Shown: positions 52,590-62,412 of the stretch, piece after piece
Position numbering within the stretch: position 1 is the stretch's first letter
Layout: every line of letters begins with the position of its first letter
Assembly: GCA_034007015.1 (NCBI GenBank)
Contig: JAVERS010000004.1
Span: 15,336-79,335 of the forward strand
Direction of reading: 5' to 3'
From: Desulfuromonadaceae bacterium
Lineage (GTDB): Bacteria > Desulfobacterota > Desulfuromonadia > Desulfuromonadales > Desulfuromonadaceae
DNA length: 64,000 nucleotides
The notes under the pieces: model-generated
The model's input: the letters and a program-made list of their open reading frames with translations, nothing else
What the model was told of the DNA's origin: nothing
The model's database searches: none
Made by a program: the position numbers and the translations under genes

Positions 52590-52916
52590 ATGGAGCCTCA
52601 CATGGAAGCGATCATAGAATGGCTGAAACCGCTTAATACATCAATGATTATCCGCTATATCACTGATCTAGATCCGTTGCACAATCCCTGGATTATTGGC
52701 GCTGCGGTTGTATTTGTATTGGTAAGCTTATGGCTCAAGTGGTATCTACTGCTCTCCTGTACACTTACTTTGGTCGGATTTGTTGCGTTAGTGTGGCTTG
52801 TGCAAAATATCGGAACCGATCTGGAGCACTCTTCAGACAGCCTATTTGTCTTTGTCGGCGGTGGCGCAGCTCTGGTGTTTCTGTTTATATACGTGGTATT
52901 CATGCGCAGCGATTAA
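52590..52916 (+). CDS. Hypothetical small membrane protein (3 TM)
   Basis: Hydrophobic segments. A GGAG RBS favours ATG 52602 over 52590. No recognisable family. Confidence 0.45.
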   Translation: MEPHMEAIIEWLKPLNTSMIIRYITDLDPLHNPWIIGAAVVFVLVSLWLKWYLLLSCTLTLVGFVALVWLVQNIGTDLEHSSDSLFVFVGGGAALVFLFIYVVFMRSD

Positions 52917-52971
52917 ATACCCAGACCTTTTAACCCACATACACACTTCAGTATTTACGAAAGGGTAAAAC

Positions 52972-53226
52972 TTGACTAAACGAGATATCATAACTATAGC
53001 CATAGGTGTTGCCGTAGTAACTTTTTTGCTGTTTGCCCCTGAAGGGACCACGCCGCACATGCCCGTGGACGCCACCCACGCCAAATATCAGCAGATATTC
53101 AAACAAGATGGGAAAAAAGCCGCAGAACAATTTTGCAAAGATTGCCACGGCAAGCCCGGGCTTGAGTTTCCTCCTGAGCACCCCGACCCAAACCGATGCT
53201 TATTCTGCCACAAGGGGGATATTTAA
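52972..53226 (+). CDS. Membrane-anchored diheme c-type cytochrome (84 aa)
   Basis: N-terminal TM anchor IITIAIGVAVVTFLLF and two CxxCH sites (CKDCH, CLFCH). TTG start. Confidence 0.6.
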   Translation: MTKRDIITIAIGVAVVTFLLFAPEGTTPHMPVDATHAKYQQIFKQDGKKAAEQFCKDCHGKPGLEFPPEHPDPNRCLFCHKGDI

Positions 53227-53302
53227 CTATTTAATCCGCTGCAGAATATCTGCTACAACAGCGGAATCCTGCAGCGCAAACCTGCCTGCAGATGAAATGG
53301 AC

Positions 53303-53331
53303 TTGACATCTTGAATAAGGCGGAGTAAATA
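53303..53331 (+). promoter_or_regulatory. Candidate sigma70 promoter for the DUF4492-cydAB operon
   Basis: TTGACA (53303-53308), 17-nt spacer, TAAATA (53326-53331), about 70 nt upstream of ATG 53400. Confidence 0.35.
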
Positions 53332-53399
53332 CAACCAAAAAGGTAATAATTATATCAGCAATAGCTTCATTTCTTTTTCATCCTATACGGGGGTAGCAT

Positions 53400-53633
53400 A
53401 TGTTTATACGCAATGTGTACACATTTTACCGCGATGGATTTCGTTCCATGGTGGTGGGCAAAACCCTGTGGAAAATCATCTTCATCAAGCTTTTCATCAT
53501 GTTTGCAGTACTAAAGGTGTTCTTCTTCCCGAACTTCCTTGCCACTAACTTCTCTTCCGATGCTGAACGCGCCGAGCACGTCCTTGGCAATCTAACTGAG
53601 AGTAGATCTCCGCCGCCATCTGAACTGCAATGA
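53400..53633 (+). CDS. DUF4492-family small membrane protein (cyd-associated)
   Basis: FYRDGFRSM..GKTLWKIIFIKLFIMFAVLKVFFFPNFL matches my memory of the DUF4492 family, which lies upstream of cydA in several phyla. Confidence 0.7.
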   Translation: MFIRNVYTFYRDGFRSMVVGKTLWKIIFIKLFIMFAVLKVFFFPNFLATNFSSDAERAEHVLGNLTESRSPPPSELQ

Positions 53634-53683: not shown

Positions 53684-55219
53684 GTGATTGAAAACATAGA
53701 CCTCAGCATGGTGAACTGGGCGCGCGCCACCTTTGCCCTTACCGCCATGTACCATTGGATTTTCGTTCCCCTCACCTTGGGGTTGGCGTTTTTATGTGCT
53801 TTTTTTGAAACAATTTACGTAAAAACCCGCAACCCAGAGTGGAAGCACCTCACTAAGTTCTGGATGACCCTGTTTGGGATCAACTTTGCCATCGGGGTTG
53901 CCACCGGTATTATTCTAGAGTTTGAGTTTGGCACCAACTGGTCTAACTATTCATGGATGGTTGGGGATATTTTTGGTGCTCCGCTTGCCATTGAGGGAAT
54001 TTTTGCTTTTTTCCTCGAAGCAACTTTCTTTGCGGTGATGTTCTTCGGCTGGGACCGAGTTTCCACCCGTATGCACTTATTTTCCACCTGGATGGTAGCG
54101 GTAGGTTCCAACCTCTCTGCCCTGTGGATTCTGGTAGCTAACGGCTGGATGCAAAATCCAGTGGGGATGGTCTTCAATCCCGATAGTGCGCGCTTTGAGA
54201 TGGAAAACCTGTGGGCGGTGATCTCCTCTCCGGTCGCAATCGGTCACTTTGTCCATGCAACCAGCTCCGGCTTTTTACTTGCATCCCTGTTCGTAGTAGG
54301 GATCTCCAGCTGGTATCTACTGCGCGGCAAGCACAAGAAGTTTGCCCTACGTTCTATCACTGTGGCGTGTGTATTTGGGCTTTTGAGCTCTGTCTTTGTC
54401 GCTTTCAGTGGAGATGAACACGCGTTTATCACTGCAAAAACTCAACCCATGAAACTTGCCGCGATGGAAGGGATGTACAAAGGTTCTTCTGGTGCTGGAC
54501 TGGTGGCGCTGGGGATGGCCAACCCCCTCAAACAACCCGGTGATGATCAGGATCCATTTATATTTAAGATAGAAATTCCGAAAATACTAAGCCTCCTCGC
54601 AACCCGTGATTTCAACGGATTTGTTCCCGGGATTGACGATCTGCTCTATGGCAATGCCGCGCAGGGGATCATGGGGGTAGATGCAAAGATAGAGCGTGGA
54701 GACCAGGCAGTTGCCGCGCTGACGGCGTACAAAGAAGCGCGCAAAGCTAACAACGAAGCACAAGCCTCTGCGGCACTTGAGACGTTTAATCAGCACCGCG
54801 ATTACCTCGGATACGGACACCTGCTCTCTGTTGAACATGCTGTACCGCCAGTGGGTCTCACTTTCTATGCCTTCAGAGTGATGGTTGGCCTTGGCACTTT
54901 TTTTATTTTGCTGTTTGCCCTGTACCTTTTTCTTCTGCATCGTGGAACCTTGGAGCGCAACTATCCGCTCCTGATCCTTGGAGTCCTGGGGCTGTTTCTA
55001 GGCTACGTTGCACAACAGGCCGGCTGGATCGTAACTGAAGTTGGGCGACAGCCGTGGGCGATTCAAGATATGCTGCCGGTAACAGTCGCGCGTTCCAATC
55101 TAGATACGGGCACAGTTATGACAACATTCTTCCTGTTCCTGGCGTTGTTTACCGTCTTACTTATCGCTGAGCTTAAAATCATGGCGCGCCAGATAGGCAT
55201 TGGCCCGGGAGGAGAGTAA
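53684..55219 (+). CDS. cydA: Cytochrome bd oxidase subunit I
   Basis: 511 aa. ARATFALTAMYHWIFVPLTLG, a Q-loop region and GWIVTEVGRQPW. GTG start. Confidence 0.95.
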   Translation: MIENIDLSMVNWARATFALTAMYHWIFVPLTLGLAFLCAFFETIYVKTRNPEWKHLTKFWMTLFGINFAIGVATGIILEFEFGTNWSNYSWMVGDIFGAPLAIEGIFAFFLEATFFAVMFFGWDRVSTRMHLFSTWMVAVGSNLSALWILVANGWMQNPVGMVFNPDSARFEMENLWAVISSPVAIGHFVHATSSGFLLASLFVVGISSWYLLRGKHKKFALRSITVACVFGLLSSVFVAFSGDEHAFITAKTQPMKLAAMEGMYKGSSGAGLVALGMANPLKQPGDDQDPFIFKIEIPKILSLLATRDFNGFVPGIDDLLYGNAAQGIMGVDAKIERGDQAVAALTAYKEARKANNEAQASAALETFNQHRDYLGYGHLLSVEHAVPPVGLTFYAFRVMVGLGTFFILLFALYLFLLHRGTLERNYPLLILGVLGLFLGYVAQQAGWIVTEVGRQPWAIQDMLPVTVARSNLDTGTVMTTFFLFLALFTVLLIAELKIMARQIGIGPGGE

Positions 55220-55221
55220 TT

Positions 55222-56352
55222 ATGTTTGGAAGTCTTGAATTGTCAACACTACAGCAACTTTGGTGGCTTATAGTCTCCGTAGTTGCTGCCCTCTTCATTT
55301 TTCTCACCTTCGTCCAGGGGGGGCAGACCCTTCTACTTACCCTCCCCGAAAGTGAAGACGAGAAAAGTCTGATAGTAAACTCTCTGGGACGCAAGTGGGA
55401 ACTTACCTTCACTACCCTGGTTCTGTTCGGAGGTGCATTTTTCGCTTCGTTCCCGCTGTTTTATGCCACTAGTTTTGGCGGTGCATACTGGGTGTGGATC
55501 GCAATCTTGTTTACTTTTATCATTCAAGCGGTCAGCTACGAATTCCGCACTAAACCGGGAAACTTTCTGGGGCAGAAAACCTTTGAGCGCTTTTTATTCA
55601 TCAATGGCTCAGTCGGCATCCTCCTTATCGGAACAGCAGTGGGGACATTTTTCACCGGCTCTGCCTTCACCCTCAACGACTACAATCTAGTCCAGTGGGG
55701 GCACCCTCTGCGTGGTCTAGAAGCAGCTTTCAGCCTCTTTAATCTGAGCCTTGGAATGTTTCTGGTATTCCTCGCCCGCACCCTTGGCGCTCTGTATCTG
55801 AGCAATAATCTTGATGAGCCCGGACTTGTACAGCGCCTTAAAAACGCAAGTGGAAACAACTTTGTGTGCGCGTTGCCATTTTTGCTGTACGTGCTGGTTC
55901 GCCTAGTCACCATGGATGGATACGCCATCAACCCCACTGACGGAAGTATCTTTATTGAAACCAACAAGTACCTGCACAACCTAATCGAGATGCCTCTGAC
56001 TCTGATTTTGCTTTTAACAGGGCTGGTGCTGGTAATCACAGGGGTGATGTTGAACTACTTCTCCGAATCGGTGCGTGGAATCTGGCCCGCAGGGCTTGGC
56101 ACCGTGCTGACTGTTCTAGCCATATTTTTTCTCGCCGGATACAACAACACTGCGTTCTATCCTTCGCATCTTGACCTGAACAGTAGTATCACCATCTACA
56201 ATGGTTCCAGTAGCCACTATACCCTCACCATGATGAGCTACGTAGCTCTCATGATCCCGTTTGTGCTGGCGTATATCGTGTGGGTGTGGCGCCAGATGGA
56301 TAGTAAGAAACTGTCACTTATCGAAGTGGTATCAGACAAGAAAAGCTATTAG
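55222..56352 (+). CDS. cydB: Cytochrome bd oxidase subunit II
   Basis: 376 aa polytopic protein, 2 nt after the cydA stop, with a typical CydB N-terminus (L..LWW.I......F..L.G). Confidence 0.92.
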   Translation: MFGSLELSTLQQLWWLIVSVVAALFIFLTFVQGGQTLLLTLPESEDEKSLIVNSLGRKWELTFTTLVLFGGAFFASFPLFYATSFGGAYWVWIAILFTFIIQAVSYEFRTKPGNFLGQKTFERFLFINGSVGILLIGTAVGTFFTGSAFTLNDYNLVQWGHPLRGLEAAFSLFNLSLGMFLVFLARTLGALYLSNNLDEPGLVQRLKNASGNNFVCALPFLLYVLVRLVTMDGYAINPTDGSIFIETNKYLHNLIEMPLTLILLLTGLVLVITGVMLNYFSESVRGIWPAGLGTVLTVLAIFFLAGYNNTAFYPSHLDLNSSITIYNGSSSHYTLTMMSYVALMIPFVLAYIVWVWRQMDSKKLSLIEVVSDKKSY

Positions 56353-56784: not shown

Positions 56785-57849
56785 ATGAAACGTATCATTG
56801 CAGTAGCTGTCGCCTCGATGCTGACAGTTTCCACCTTGGCATTTGCCTCAGACGCAGAACTGCGTGCCATGAGCAGGAGCATGTTCAAGCCCATCCCTGC
56901 AAGCGCACCTGAGCTGGCAGGCAACAAAGCCAACCCGGAAAAACTTAAGCTCGGCCACATGCTGTACTTCGAGCCACGCCTCTCCTCCTCCCAGCTTATC
57001 AGCTGCCAGACCTGCCACAATGTTGGCCTTGCTGGTGCTGATCTGCAGGAGACATCAACTGGACACGGATGGCAAAAAGGACCGCGTAACTCCCCCACCA
57101 CCTACAATGCAGTATTCAACACGGCTCAGTTCTGGGATGGACGCGCCAAAGACCTAGCAGAGCAGTCAAAAGGGCCGGTGCAGGCGTCTGTAGAGATGAA
57201 CAACACCCCAGAAAAAGTGATCGAGACGTTGAATTCAATCCCCGAATACGTGGAACTGTTTAAGAAAGCGTTCCCCGGTGAGAAAGTTGCGGTCACCTTC
57301 GACAACATGGCCAAAGCTATTGAGATTTTCGAAGCGACTCTACTTACCCCCAATGATCCCTTTGACCGTTTCATGGCCGGCGACAACGCTGCCCTGAGCG
57401 CAACGCAGAAACAAGGGCTCGAACTCTTTATCAACCGTGGTTGTGTAGGTTGCCATGGCGGCGTGAATCTGGGTGGTACAGGCTACTTCCCCTTCGGAGT
57501 AGTTGAAAAACCCAACGCAGAGTTACTTCCGGAAGGGGACAAGGGGCGCTTCCAGGTAACCAACACTGCAGCAGATGAGTATGTGTTCCGCTCCCCGGCG
57601 TTGCGTAACGTTGCCCTCACCTACCCGTACTTCCACACGGGTAAAGTATGGGATCTCAACACTGCAGTAGAAATTATGAGCAGCTCCCAGTTGGGTATGG
57701 ATCTTAACAAGGAAGAGGCTGCAAAGATTACGAGTTTCCTCAGAGCTCTCACTGGTGAGCAGCCGATAATTGAGCATCCACTCCTACCACCGAGCACCAG
57801 CAAAACACCGCAGCCGAACCTGATGGTAGAAAGCGCAGTCACCAACTAA
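56785..57849 (+). CDS. ccpA: Diheme cytochrome c peroxidase (CcpA/MacA type)
   Basis: Signal peptide, CQTCHN and CVGCHGG heme sites, and conserved NSPT..N..FN..QFWDGRA and PYFHTG. Confidence 0.93.
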   Translation: MKRIIAVAVASMLTVSTLAFASDAELRAMSRSMFKPIPASAPELAGNKANPEKLKLGHMLYFEPRLSSSQLISCQTCHNVGLAGADLQETSTGHGWQKGPRNSPTTYNAVFNTAQFWDGRAKDLAEQSKGPVQASVEMNNTPEKVIETLNSIPEYVELFKKAFPGEKVAVTFDNMAKAIEIFEATLLTPNDPFDRFMAGDNAALSATQKQGLELFINRGCVGCHGGVNLGGTGYFPFGVVEKPNAELLPEGDKGRFQVTNTAADEYVFRSPALRNVALTYPYFHTGKVWDLNTAVEIMSSSQLGMDLNKEEAAKITSFLRALTGEQPIIEHPLLPPSTSKTPQPNLMVESAVTN

Positions 57850-58736: not shown

Positions 58737-59213
58737 ATGAAACCACAGAAAGGCTCTATTTTGTTACATATATTCATCGATGCGGATGCCTGCCCGGTCA
58801 AACAGGAGGTATACCGCGTAGCCAGGCGCTATAAACTCCAGGTTACCTTGGTAGCAAACTCCTGGATGCGCATTCCGCACGAGCAGGGGATATCTCTTGA
58901 AGTTGTGGGGGCTGGGGCAGATGCAGCCGACGACTGGATAGTTGGCCAGGTTCAGCCAGATGACATAGTAATAACTGCAGATATTCCCCTTGCGAGTAGA
59001 TGCCTGAAGAAAAACGCAGCTGTCATTGGAACCACAGGAAAGCCGTTTACCGAAAGCAACATAGGTGATTGTGTCGCAACTCGGGATCTACTATCCGAAC
59101 TACGCGATGCGGGAGAAACAACAGGTGGACCGCCGCCATTGAAAAAAAGTGACCGCTCCCGCTTTCTCCAGCGCCTAGATGAGGCTATACAGGCGATTCG
59201 ACGCAAACATTGA
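58737..59213 (+). CDS. yaiI: YaiI/YqxD family protein (UPF0178/DUF188)
   Basis: IFIDADACPVK..V..VA.R......VAN matches the UPF0178 N-terminal signature. Confidence 0.8.
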   Translation: MKPQKGSILLHIFIDADACPVKQEVYRVARRYKLQVTLVANSWMRIPHEQGISLEVVGAGADAADDWIVGQVQPDDIVITADIPLASRCLKKNAAVIGTTGKPFTESNIGDCVATRDLLSELRDAGETTGGPPPLKKSDRSRFLQRLDEAIQAIRRKH

Positions 59214-59413
59214 CCCGCTCACCTTCATGCTACTAAGCAGAAACGGATTTGTGAATTTTACCCTGGCACAGAAGGTTCTTTTCTGCATATTTCCTAATAA
59301 ACTACGCGCAAAGGGTTTTTTATCGTGTACAATATTAAGAGTAGCAAAAAGGTAGCTTGCCATGTGCCCAGAACAAAAAAACAGGCACTAATTTTAACAA
59401 GGAGGAATTGAAA

Positions 59414-59857
59414 ATGAGAAGTTTGACTATGGGCTTAACGTTAAGTTTTATGCTTTTATTTGCCGCAGCAAATGTTTACAGCCACTGTGAAATCCCATGC
59501 GGTATATATGATGATCCGCTGCGGATAAGTCTGCTCAAAGAACACATCACCACCATAGAAAAATCGATGAAAACCATCCATACCCTTGAAAAATCTGCAG
59601 ATCATCATACGCATCAACTCATGCGCTGGGTGAATAACAAAGAAGACCATGCGAACAAATTTCAGGAGATTGTTGCGCAATATTTTATGACCCAACGCAT
59701 CGGCGCGGATGATGCAAATTACGCAAAAAAGATCCAGGCGCTGCATCAGATGCTTGTGTATGCCATGAAATGCAAACAGACAACTGATTTGGACCACATT
59801 GAAACACTTAAAACCCTGGTGGCTGAGTTCGAGAAGCTTTACTTCGCTAAAAAATAG
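59414..59857 (+). CDS. sodN: Nickel superoxide dismutase precursor
   Basis: Ni-hook HCEIPCGIYDD (compare Streptomyces HCDLPCGVYDP) directly after a 23-aa leader, MRSLTMGLTLSFMLLFAAANVYS. ATG 59414 follows an AAGGAGGA RBS; the ORF-track start at 59357 has no RBS. Confidence 0.9.
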   Translation: MRSLTMGLTLSFMLLFAAANVYSHCEIPCGIYDDPLRISLLKEHITTIEKSMKTIHTLEKSADHHTHQLMRWVNNKEDHANKFQEIVAQYFMTQRIGADDANYAKKIQALHQMLVYAMKCKQTTDLDHIETLKTLVAEFEKLYFAKK

Positions 59858-60005
59858 CTTATCCGGCAAAACATCCACATCGAATGACAGAAAACTAGCA
59901 CCAGGTTATTTTATCCATGCAGAAACGAACGGGCCGCTGTTGACACATTAGCGTCACAGGCGGCCCGTGTTGAAGGGTCTATCAGACCTTAGCTAGGGGG
60001 ACAAA

Positions 60006-60785
60006 TTATTTTGCCATTGCCCCTATGGCTTTTGTGGGATTTGCTTCTACTCTTTTCAGGATTGCGGCAGATTTTTCTTCAGGCAACCAATTGATATTAC
60101 CATTAGATACATCATAAACCGCCCCAACAACTTTGACTTTTCCCGCATTCACTAAATTACGCGAAACAGGACTGTGCATAAATAGATCCTCAATCCCCTG
60201 CCAGATATTTTCTTCAACAGCATACGGGATCACCTCAGCACCGTGGAGATCAGGATTCTTTGCCATCGCCTTTTCCACCGCGGGGATAATGTTATCAACC
60301 AAAGGTGGTATATTCCTCTCAAGTGGATGTCCATGCCCCTGGACAGTGTTTGTCACCGCTGTTACGGCCCCACACTGAGTATGTCCCAGCACGACAAAGA
60401 CAGGGGTATTTACATGTACCAGACCATATTCAACAGATCCTATCTCATCAACATCCAACACATTTCCGGCAACACGAATAACAAAAAGATCCATTACACC
60501 AGCATCAAACAAGATCTCCACCGGAACTCTGGAATCAGAGCAGGCTATTATAGTTGCATAAGCGTGATCGGCCTGGCTTTCCTTGCCAGCAAGGGCAAGG
60601 CGTGACGCGTCGGCATGCGGTTGCGTAGCGCTTCCCGTAGCAAAACGTGTATTCCCAGCTTTCAACATCGCTATTACCTCATCCGGACTTGGCTTGACTA
60701 CCATACTTTCTCTGGCCAAAGCCGAACCACAGGTAAGAGCTATTAAACAGATGACCATCCCTGCTCTGTAAATATTTTTTAGCAT
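60006..60785 (-). CDS. Beta-class carbonic anhydrase with N-terminal signal peptide
   Basis: Zinc ligands CSDSRV and HTQCGAV. Leader MLKNIYRAGMVICLIALTCGSALA|RES. Start at 60785 after GGGAGA. Confidence 0.85.
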   Translation of the reverse strand: MLKNIYRAGMVICLIALTCGSALARESMVVKPSPDEVIAMLKAGNTRFATGSATQPHADASRLALAGKESQADHAYATIIACSDSRVPVEILFDAGVMDLFVIRVAGNVLDVDEIGSVEYGLVHVNTPVFVVLGHTQCGAVTAVTNTVQGHGHPLERNIPPLVDNIIPAVEKAMAKNPDLHGAEVIPYAVEENIWQGIEDLFMHSPVSRNLVNAGKVKVVGAVYDVSNGNINWLPEEKSAAILKRVEANPTKAIGAMAK

Positions 60786-60987
60786 GTACTGTTTCTCCCT
60801 TAAACTTCCATTAAAATCGATAAACAATAAAAACATGTGTTAAGCCATGCCACATTGGGGAGATAGAACCCTTGTTCGAACAATACAGCTTTCAGCAAAA
60901 AGATGGAACAATTTATACTCTAAGCTACTCTATCAAATTCAGCGCCAGCAGATAATTAAGCCACTGGCGTTGAACTAGACACCTGCA

Positions 60988-62412
60988 CTACAACTGGCGC
61001 ATAAATGCTGTCAATGCAGCCTTCTCCTCTTTGGTCAGGTTCAGTTCAGTAACTACGTTGAAAAACTCTACCGTGTCCTCAAGGGTCAACAAACGGCCGT
61101 CATGCATATAGGGTGGTGAGTCTTTTATCCCACGTAGGGTAAAGCTTTTGATGGGACCTACTGGGGTGATCCATTTTCCATTGCTCATTCTCGACTCGTA
61201 AAAACGCCCTACCTTAAGGTCATGCATCCTATCATCGGTATAAAACGGCGCGGGATGGCAGACACTACACTGCCCTTTGCCGAAGAAAATCTCCTGCCCC
61301 AACATTTCCTGTTTCGTGGCCGTCGCTGGGTCTAGCTTGCCGAACACGTTGAGCTTTGGTGCTGGGGGAAAATCAAACAGATTCTGCATCTGTGCCATCA
61401 TTGCCGCCTGACTGGCGCGATCCGGCACATTTATCCCTTTTTTTGTGGCAATCACGTGGTCCCCGTCGAAATAGGCTGTACGCTGTTCAAATTCGGTAAA
61501 GTCCTCAATCGACCTCAGGGAACGCTTTGAGCCATGAATCTGCTGATTGTACATGCCACGCAGACTCACTGAGTCTAGACGAAAACGGGCGACTTGGGGA
61601 CGGGTATCCGGATTCAGGTGGTATGTCGCATTGGTGTGACCATTGGTATGACAATCCAGGCAGGCTACGCCCATACTGGGTTTTTCTACTTTCCTATCCT
61701 CAGTCTGATTGAATTGCTGCTGTGTGAAGGGGGTAAGGAGCAACCTTAACCCTTCCATCTGAACCGGGGTAAGAATTCCACTCATCAATTCATAATAGTT
61801 GTCTATGCTGAGCATTTTTCCTTGAGATACATCCCCCAGTTCTGGATGGGTGGTCAAATACATTGGCGGGGGAAATTCTGGGATAAAATGTAGCGGCAGA
61901 TCAAAGTCAACATCGAAGCGTTTAAGTGAGCGTTGCTCCAACCTTTGTATCTCATCGATTTGCTCCTTAGGAAACACCTGCCCCCCAGTTGCATGTTTGG
62001 TATGCGGGAGAGGCAAAAAACCCTCGGGAAAAAGGTCTTTCTCTTTAATTTCCGCTGCGGTCATAGCATTTAACTTTTCCCACGTCATCGATTTTGGAAG
62101 TTTTACCCGCACCCCTTCCTGGATTGGCTTTCTCTTTCCCGACATCATCACCTCGGCGGGTCGATCACTTAAATCATAGCGGCGTTCCAAAAGCGCCTGT
62201 TGCCGCTCCATCACTTTCGGCTTCTCTTTCACCTCTTTCTTCATGGTGGTATTAAAGTCTTCCTCAATCACAACCGGCATGTACGTCTGTGGGTTAGGAT
62301 CAACCTCTGCGGGGATCTGTGCATCAATCGCATAAGCGATGCCCACAGTGATCAGAACCAAGCATAGAACCCCAATGCATCCCCACCATCTTTTATTAAA
62401 ATTGCTCCTCAT
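60988..62412 (-). CDS. Long (474 aa) CCP/MauG-superfamily diheme protein
   Basis: N-terminal TM or signal segment. Heme sites CLDCH and CSVCH. C-terminal SPPYMHDGRLLTLEDTVEFFN is typical of the diheme peroxidase fold. A ~230-aa N-terminal extension has no recognisable motif. Confidence 0.75.
   Translation of the reverse strand: MRSNFNKRWWGCIGVLCLVLITVGIAYAIDAQIPAEVDPNPQTYMPVVIEEDFNTTMKKEVKEKPKVMERQQALLERRYDLSDRPAEVMMSGKRKPIQEGVRVKLPKSMTWEKLNAMTAAEIKEKDLFPEGFLPLPHTKHATGGQVFPKEQIDEIQRLEQRSLKRFDVDFDLPLHFIPEFPPPMYLTTHPELGDVSQGKMLSIDNYYELMSGILTPVQMEGLRLLLTPFTQQQFNQTEDRKVEKPSMGVACLDCHTNGHTNATYHLNPDTRPQVARFRLDSVSLRGMYNQQIHGSKRSLRSIEDFTEFEQRTAYFDGDHVIATKKGINVPDRASQAAMMAQMQNLFDFPPAPKLNVFGKLDPATATKQEMLGQEIFFGKGQCSVCHPAPFYTDDRMHDLKVGRFYESRMSNGKWITPVGPIKSFTLRGIKDSPPYMHDGRLLTLEDTVEFFNVVTELNLTKEEKAALTAFMRQL

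Follow-up and report, generated by a model that had tools for sequence, protein, structure and literature searches.

The 64,000-nt stretch of DNA analyzed here, referred to throughout as the window, contains, between a yaiI gene and a gene for a beta-class carbonic anhydrase, a reading frame whose product is very probably the precursor of a nickel superoxide dismutase (Ni-SOD, gene sodN; Table 1) destined for export. The first-pass annotation of the window had placed this gene at 59357-59857. A forward-strand frame of that extent does exist and is the longest one in the list of open reading frames, but position 59357 is a TTG that marks only its maximal extent, and the true start is likely the ATG at 59414, which is favored by the AGGAGG box just upstream. 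When homologues are compared, their first Met aligns with the Met encoded at 59414, and this agreement together with the AGGAGG box indicates that the real product is a protein of 147 residues. Translation from ATG 59414 reproduces the 147-residue precursor with a 23-residue leader that had been annotated, MRSLTMGLTLSFMLLFAAANVYS/HCEIPCGIYDDP..., where the slash, as in the junctions below, marks the predicted or potential cut.

Table 1. Coordinates of sodN, its parts and nearby genes in the window.
Feature	Coordinates	Strand	Evidence or remark
Putative cydA and cydB (cytochrome bd oxidase)	53684..56352	+	ORFs of 511 and 376 aa; named by sequence appearance
Di-heme cytochrome c peroxidase	56785..57849	+	Pfam CCP_MauG, 189.8 bits; own signal peptide MKRIIAVAVASMLTVSTLAFA/SD
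YaiI/YqxD family (DUF188), upstream neighbor	58737..59213	+	NF001095, 183 bits; PF02639, 161 bits; not a peptidase
Ribosome-binding site AGGAGG	59401..59406	+	7 nt before ATG 59414; read from sequence
Predicted Sec-type signal peptide, 23 codons	59414..59482	+	MRS - LTMGLTLSFMLLFAAA - NVYS; translation
Ni-hook HCEIPCGIY	59483..59509	+	His1, Cys2, Pro5, Cys6, Gly7 and Tyr9 of the predicted mature protein
Predicted mature Ni-SOD, 124 aa plus stop; four-helix bundle	59483..59857	+	Pfam Sod_Ni, AlphaFold2, Foldseek
Beta-class carbonic anhydrase, downstream neighbor	60006..60836	-	Pfam Pro_CA, 126 bits; not a peptidase

The predicted protein matches the Pfam family Sod_Ni (PF09055) with 110.3 bits against a cut-off of 25, and the match spans model positions 2-127 of 127. 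Its score with TIGR02753, the NCBIfam equivalog model of the classical enzyme SodN (that of the protease SodX being TIGR02754), is 48.4 bits and falls below the cut-off of 90. The identification as a Ni-SOD with a hook of the HCxxPCGxY type holds, since the family match is accompanied by HCEIPCGIY directly after the leader, and an alignment of 81 diverse relatives shows no substitution at the H, C, P, C and G positions of the hook. Searching the sequences of the PDB, where the classical enzyme is represented by entries 1T6U and 1Q0D, with the single sequence gave no match, and a profile search reached a NiSOD entry only at E = 0.006 and only in the hook region. With sequence searches of the PDB this weak, confirmation of the fold had to come from a structural comparison. 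An AlphaFold2 model built on an 81-sequence alignment (pLDDT 92.8) has helices at residues 2-22 (the leader), 34-60, 66-95, 103-122 and 126-144, with the hook less confidently placed, and the top 16 Foldseek matches to this model in the PDB are all chains of Streptomyces NiSOD (target-normalized TM 0.80-0.85, rmsd 1.9-3.1 Å, 14-17% identity). As modeled, a signal helix precedes a four-helix bundle, and the match is to NiSOD of Streptomyces. Judged by these identities and scores, the subfamily with a signal peptide is remote from the solved NiSOD structures, and no characterized member of it was found in searches of the literature and of databases.

The gene is the last in a row of genes on the same strand (approximately 52.6-59.9 kb) that encode a small di-heme cytochrome c, a small membrane protein, the putative CydA and CydB, the cytochrome c peroxidase, a thiol peroxidase, YaiI and the Ni-SOD. 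Upstream of the putative cydA, on the strand of the oxygen-defense genes, are three small ORFs (52590-53633), the first for a 108-residue membrane protein, the second (52972-53226) for an 84-residue membrane-anchored protein with two CxxCH heme motifs and the third (53400-53633) for a hydrophobic protein of 77 residues. The cytochrome c peroxidase is a possible periplasmic sink for the H2O2 made by an SOD, and the putative CydAB a possible sink for O2. Linkage of sodN to peroxidase or oxidase genes is not conserved across the family in 81 loci examined over 6 kb. On the other side of sodN, the beta-carbonic anhydrase begins, in translation, with a signal-peptide-like N-terminus. Beyond it, on the reverse strand (60988-62412), lies a gene for a 474-residue protein with a signal-peptide-like start and a C-terminal stretch that resembles MauG and di-heme peroxidases. 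It has an NCBIfam match of the MauG type at E ~1e-9, far below cut-offs, and no Pfam match, and by its sequence it may be a divergent heme peroxidase-like protein. The whole block is collinear in a sister species at 90-94% nucleotide identity. The sole break in an otherwise collinear alignment of 14.5 kb is the sodN-carbonic anhydrase spacer, which measures 107 bp here (window 59894-60000) versus 474 bp in the sister (L003 10484-10957). In the other seven genomes of the genus sodN is absent, and tpx, yaiI and the gene for the carbonic anhydrase lie on separate contigs.

Desulfoferrodoxin-type superoxide reductases are cytoplasmic enzymes, and the genome to which the window belongs has one of them. 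A search of the same genome (assembly 96% complete) found neither an Fe/Mn-SOD nor a Cu/Zn-SOD. The first-pass annotation had presumed an anaerobe, which fits with the superoxide reductase, with a cytochrome bd oxidase recognized by appearance and with the closest relatives, which are labeled Desulfuromonas. That the protein is exported and cut, yet is not primarily an SOD, and serves for example in periplasmic nickel binding or delivery or as another redox enzyme on the NiSOD scaffold, we regard as improbable. Its distance from characterized NiSODs (48 versus 90 bits with TIGR02753, the 14-17% identity and a profile match at E = 0.006 confined to the hook), the Phe that takes the place of Tyr9 in some diverse relatives and the precedent of other exported proteins with a His1 that bind metals without catalysis (PMC12537917) speak for such a role, whereas the hook is complete, the whole four-helix bundle is conserved, the gene lies among oxygen-defense genes and the genome has no other SOD.

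The leader of the proposed exported Ni-SOD has a single basic residue, Arg2, which is followed by 16 uncharged, mostly hydrophobic residues, and it ends in N-V-Y-S, placing Val at -3, Ser at -1 and His at +1, with no Pro at +1. Its peak hydropathy is 2.35-2.41 on the Kyte-Doolittle scale (best stretch of 9-10 residues). On inspection the sequence shows neither a twin-arginine motif, there being a single Arg in the n-region, nor a lipobox, the first Cys being at +2, after the His. The assignment as a signal peptide is based on this rule-based anatomy and on conservation across homologues. Both the n-h-c layout of a Sec signal peptide, with its positive n-region, uncharged core and Val and Ser at -3 and -1, and the small or aliphatic residues at these two positions before HCEIPCG are as first annotated, and the residue counts at -1 and -3 across the family agree with the latter pattern. 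A second site with small residues, FAAA/N, lies four residues upstream of the junction with His1; it fits the -3/-1 rule and could in principle be a competing cleavage site.

Comparing leader lengths across SodN homologues, as had been suggested, gave a consistent picture. The 120 best database relatives are mostly labeled Desulfobacterota; their leader is 23-24 residues long in 109, and HCE(I/V)PCG starts directly at its end. All 119 close homologues whose leader could be read share the junction of leader and His1. Position -1 is occupied by A, S or G in 117 of them and position -3 by A, V, I or L in 119, and 118 satisfy a simple signal-peptide rule. Scanning one genome for each prokaryotic species gave at least 552 confirmed relatives. 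Among the best 80 of these a signal-peptide-like leader abuts the hook at every locus (80/80), and these loci, which come from Desulfobacterota and from organisms labeled Planctomycetaceae, Nitrospirae, Victivallales, Acidobacteriota, Calditrichaeota and Bacteroidales, span at least seven diderm groups. The search of a library clustered at 50% identity gave 877 clusters with E <= 0.001. The junction could be read in 142 of the best 150, and the simple signal-peptide rule is satisfied by 126 of these 142. Most of the 16 that fail it still begin with a hydrophobic leader, and they have either a spacer of 15-25 residues ahead of His1 or a Pro or Val as the last residue. Since it is kept in 119/119 close homologues and at 80/80 genomic loci, the junction between leader and His1 is by this measure not a matter of chance. 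The arrangement is no peculiarity of this organism but the rule for a very large, uncharacterized branch of Ni-SODs; by these counts the design is widespread, occurring in hundreds of species, and the gene in the window is an ordinary member.

Several variants were seen among the more diverse representatives. In P0143, P0174, P0193, P0201, P0234, P0248, P0250 and P0251 a hydrophobic leader is followed by a polar or Pro/Ala-rich spacer of 15-25 residues and only then by His1, several of these spacers ending in ...PAPV/H. For such proteins signal peptidase alone would be insufficient to expose the hook, and a second processing step would be needed. Other signal-peptide representatives, P0153 (708 residues), P0148 (370), P0129 (303) and P0165 (291), are far longer than 150 residues and combine an N-terminal Sod_Ni domain with an uncharacterized C-terminal extension. 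In a minority of the diverse signal-peptide NiSODs (P0165, P0179, P0184, P0189, P0213-P0217, P0237 and others) Tyr9 is replaced by Phe, giving HCQVPCGIFDD.

The conservation of the junction also bears on a reading in which the leader is not cut at His1, and is either retained as an uncleaved membrane anchor or cut at FAAA/N, leaving a hook that cannot bind nickel and a protein that is inactive or otherwise used. The run of three Ala residues four positions upstream, which fits the -3/-1 rule as well, gives this reading some basis. It is nonetheless very unlikely, as the small residues at -1 and -3 are held in exact register with His1 across hundreds of divergent leaders whereas the residues upstream vary freely, and the invariant H, C, P, C and G make sense solely if the hook is used.

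Cleavage at His1 raises the matter of the protease. That no SodX gene neighbors sodN, and that neither flanking gene encodes a peptidase, had been observed at the outset, and the matches of the two neighbors to NF001095/PF02639 and to Pro_CA agree with this. A search of the whole genome for SodX, which had been proposed as a check, gave with TIGR02754 a best match of 12.6 bits, in an assembly that is incomplete (135 contigs, 96% complete). This match is noise: as a candidate peptidase gene (G000:C130) it was rejected, having a stop inside and lying antisense within an ORF of 476 codons. The result proves little, as no S26 peptidase of any kind was found in this assembly with TIGR02227, PF10502 or motif regular expressions, and the assembly is also without the essential lepB. 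The sister genome encodes a SodN with 95% identity, and there lepA, lepB and mutS stand in a row and encode among them a LepB of 234 residues with intact boxes SGSMEDTL, KRIVGVPGD and GDNRDRSYDSR; none of the three genes has a counterpart in the window's assembly. This points to a missing region that holds lepA-lepB-mutS, despite the estimated completeness of 96%. A loss of signal peptidase I as an oddity of the organism was considered and set aside, lepA and mutS being absent too, in favor of a gap in the assembly. With this gap, the lack of SodX in the window's own genome is weak evidence when taken alone, and the argument is carried by comparative data from other genomes.

Among 41 genomes that carry the signal-peptide type, some of them holding the gene on megabase-size contigs or in records titled as chromosomes, none has a SodX match over the cut-off (best 36 bits versus a cut-off of 63). 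The one weak match that was inspected is LepB, and the others lie in frames of 180-300 residues. Nor is any partner gene for a protease, nickel chaperone or transporter conserved within 6 kb, where no gene of any kind recurs at more than 7 of 81 loci, and on this survey there is no hidden dedicated partner near the signal-peptide sodN.

The order to which the window belongs provides a control. A Sod_Ni gene is present in 27 of its 233 genomes and in 2 of the 9 of the genus, and from this patchy distribution sodN is judged to be an accessory gene. The Sod_Ni proteins of the order fall into two sharply separate types. Type A, the classical one, occurs in 12 genomes, scores 162-169 bits with the Pfam model and has a mature length of 132 residues, the hook HCDGPCGVYDPASA and a polar leader of approximately 20 residues (for example MKLLTRTIQQFFPAAKTVSA) with a peak hydropathy of 0.4-1.2. 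Type B, the signal-peptide one, is found by sequence in 13 genomes, scores 107-136 bits and has a mature length of 123-128 residues, the hook HC(E/Q)(I/V)PCGIY, mostly continued by DD, and a leader of 20-25 residues with a hydrophobic core and a peak hydropathy of 2.4-3.6. A SodX match of 50-68 bits lies approximately 115-140 bp downstream of the classical sodN in 12/12 genomes of type A, a positive control which demonstrates that the search finds SodX where it is present, and at E <= 1e-8 none is found in the 12 genomes of the order that have only the signal-peptide type. Within the order, by these matches, the absence of SodX tracks the type of leader. In one complete genome SodX is an S26-like protein of 114 residues that has the boxes GASMQPLL and KIIKRV and apparently lacks a membrane anchor.

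Both types can occur together. Genome G180 carries by sequence a classical sodN-sodX pair and a signal-peptide sodN (L090/L117), and G060 probably has both as well (C265 and C6), judged by score alone, the second copy scoring 112 bits. Such co-occurrence suggests a division between cytoplasm and envelope rather than redundancy. One Sod_Ni copy of the order, L108 (G213, C6:1276-1635), reads ...SLQQIPCGIYDD... where HCQIPCG is expected; it is without His1 and Cys2, has no recognizable start or leader, and is probably a decayed gene.

There is, given these comparisons, very little prospect that the protein is a cytoplasmic enzyme like the classical NiSOD whose leader is removed by a SodX-like or other protease encoded elsewhere, perhaps in the missing 4% of an assembly that is without even lepA-lepB-mutS, because none of the 41 other genomes of the same type has SodX over the cut-off, because SodX is found in 0/12 genomes of the order with type B only yet beside every classical sodN, and because a hydrophobic core of 16 residues would serve nothing in a cytoplasmic propeptide, the leaders of classical enzymes being polar.

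The best reading, and one in which we place high confidence, is that of Sec export followed by cleavage by the housekeeping signal peptidase, with nickel loading and SOD activity in the periplasm. The 23-residue leader would act as a Sec signal peptide that takes the unfolded precursor across the inner membrane, where signal peptidase I (LepB) would cut it after Val-Tyr-Ser, that is after Ser23. The same cut would both free the protein into the periplasm and create the free amino group of His1, without which nickel could not be bound by His1, the amide of Cys2 and the thiolates of Cys2 and Cys6. The protein would then pick up nickel in the periplasm and, as a four-helix bundle, dismutate superoxide there. 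LepB would in this way replace SodX and no dedicated protease would be needed. Cys2 and Cys6 of the hook would have to stay reduced in the periplasm. In this organism the enzyme may do in the envelope what the superoxide reductase does in the cytoplasm, and the CydAB-like oxidase, the cytochrome c peroxidase and the thiol peroxidase could remove the O2 and H2O2 that it makes. Export to the periplasm with signal peptidase I producing the active N-terminus had already been suggested in the first-pass annotation, and the conservation of the leader, the 0/41 genomes with SodX and the control within the order all support it. What the data establish is the family, the fold, the anatomy of the leader, its conserved junction with His1 and the link between type of leader and SodX, and we infer the export, the exact cleavage site, the loading of nickel outside the cytoplasm and the SOD activity.

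A further, tentative and on balance doubtful proposal concerns the origin of the two types. The combination of signal peptide and signal peptidase I might be the main route of NiSOD maturation, possibly the original one, and the cytoplasmic SodN/SodX pair a derived, internalized copy. In the course of such an internalization the leader would have lost its hydrophobic core and kept the small residues of the cleavage site at -1 and -3, and SodX would be a relative of LepB that lost its membrane anchor. Compatible with this are the predominance of the signal-peptide type among the nearest representatives (126/142, from the best 150 of 877 clusters), the classical leaders, which end in ...V-S-A/H with small residues at -1 and -3, and the 114-residue, S26-like SodX without an apparent anchor.

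Textbooks present NiSOD as cytoplasmic and dependent on a protease of its own. If the proteins with a signal peptide do leave the cytoplasm and owe their maturation to the general signal peptidase, a large part of the diversity of NiSOD is at work in the envelope of diderm cells, many of the carriers are anaerobes of sediments, and nickel is loaded outside the cytoplasm. One proteolytic cut would then both localize the enzyme and build its metal site. Counts of sodN in metagenomes would also have to be read differently, and the absence of sodX would be no sign of a dead enzyme. In a 2021 study, cyanobacterial sodN genes without sodX were regarded as possibly non-functional (PMC8346466).

Compared with the classical SodN of Streptomyces and marine cyanobacteria, the enzyme encoded in the window is a variant of a known family that differs in its predicted maturation and in its likely location. 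The two share the Pfam family, the hook layout H-C-x-x-P-C-G-x-Y, the four-helix bundle and the small residues at -1 and -3 (...TVSA/H in the classical copies of the same order). The leader is polar in the classical protein and of the Sec type with a hydrophobic core in the other, the hook reads HCD(L/G)PCGVYDPA in the former and HCEIPCGIYDD in the latter, and the mature protein has 132 residues in the classical copies of the same order versus 124 here. While classical SodN is accompanied by SodX and is cytoplasmic, the type found in the window is without SodX and is predicted to be periplasmic.

A description of a periplasmic NiSOD was not found in a search of the full-text literature. The architecture of a signal peptide joined to Sod_Ni has already been seen in print, though not studied. 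In the "signal-strapping" study (Nat Commun 2025, PMC12537917) the leader of a Sod_Ni protein of Roseiconus lacunae, MTRLLTATLALMFTASIASA/H, served as the bait of a search, which "retrieved many Ni-superoxide dismutases." That protein (WP_230780104.1) has the same architecture as the one in the window, which comes from a Desulfuromonas-like bacterium, with a Sec leader whose small residues stand directly before His1 of PF09055. In that study the leader was used as search bait alone, and localization, maturation and the absence of SodX were outside its scope (PMC12537917).

The closest functional parallels come from enzymes unrelated to NiSOD in fold and metal. Like the role proposed here, that of SodC and of the exported Fe-SOD of Desulfovibrio vulgaris would be to clear superoxide that is unable to cross the inner membrane. 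Cu/Zn SodC is a periplasmic SOD of Gram-negative bacteria, and the Fe-SOD of D. vulgaris is reportedly exported and found beside a cytoplasmic superoxide reductase, the same division of labor in an anaerobe as is envisaged for the present organism. In neither SodC nor the exported Fe-SOD, however, does cleavage of the signal peptide make a metal ligand, whereas in the Ni-SOD described here the active site would come into being through the cut itself.
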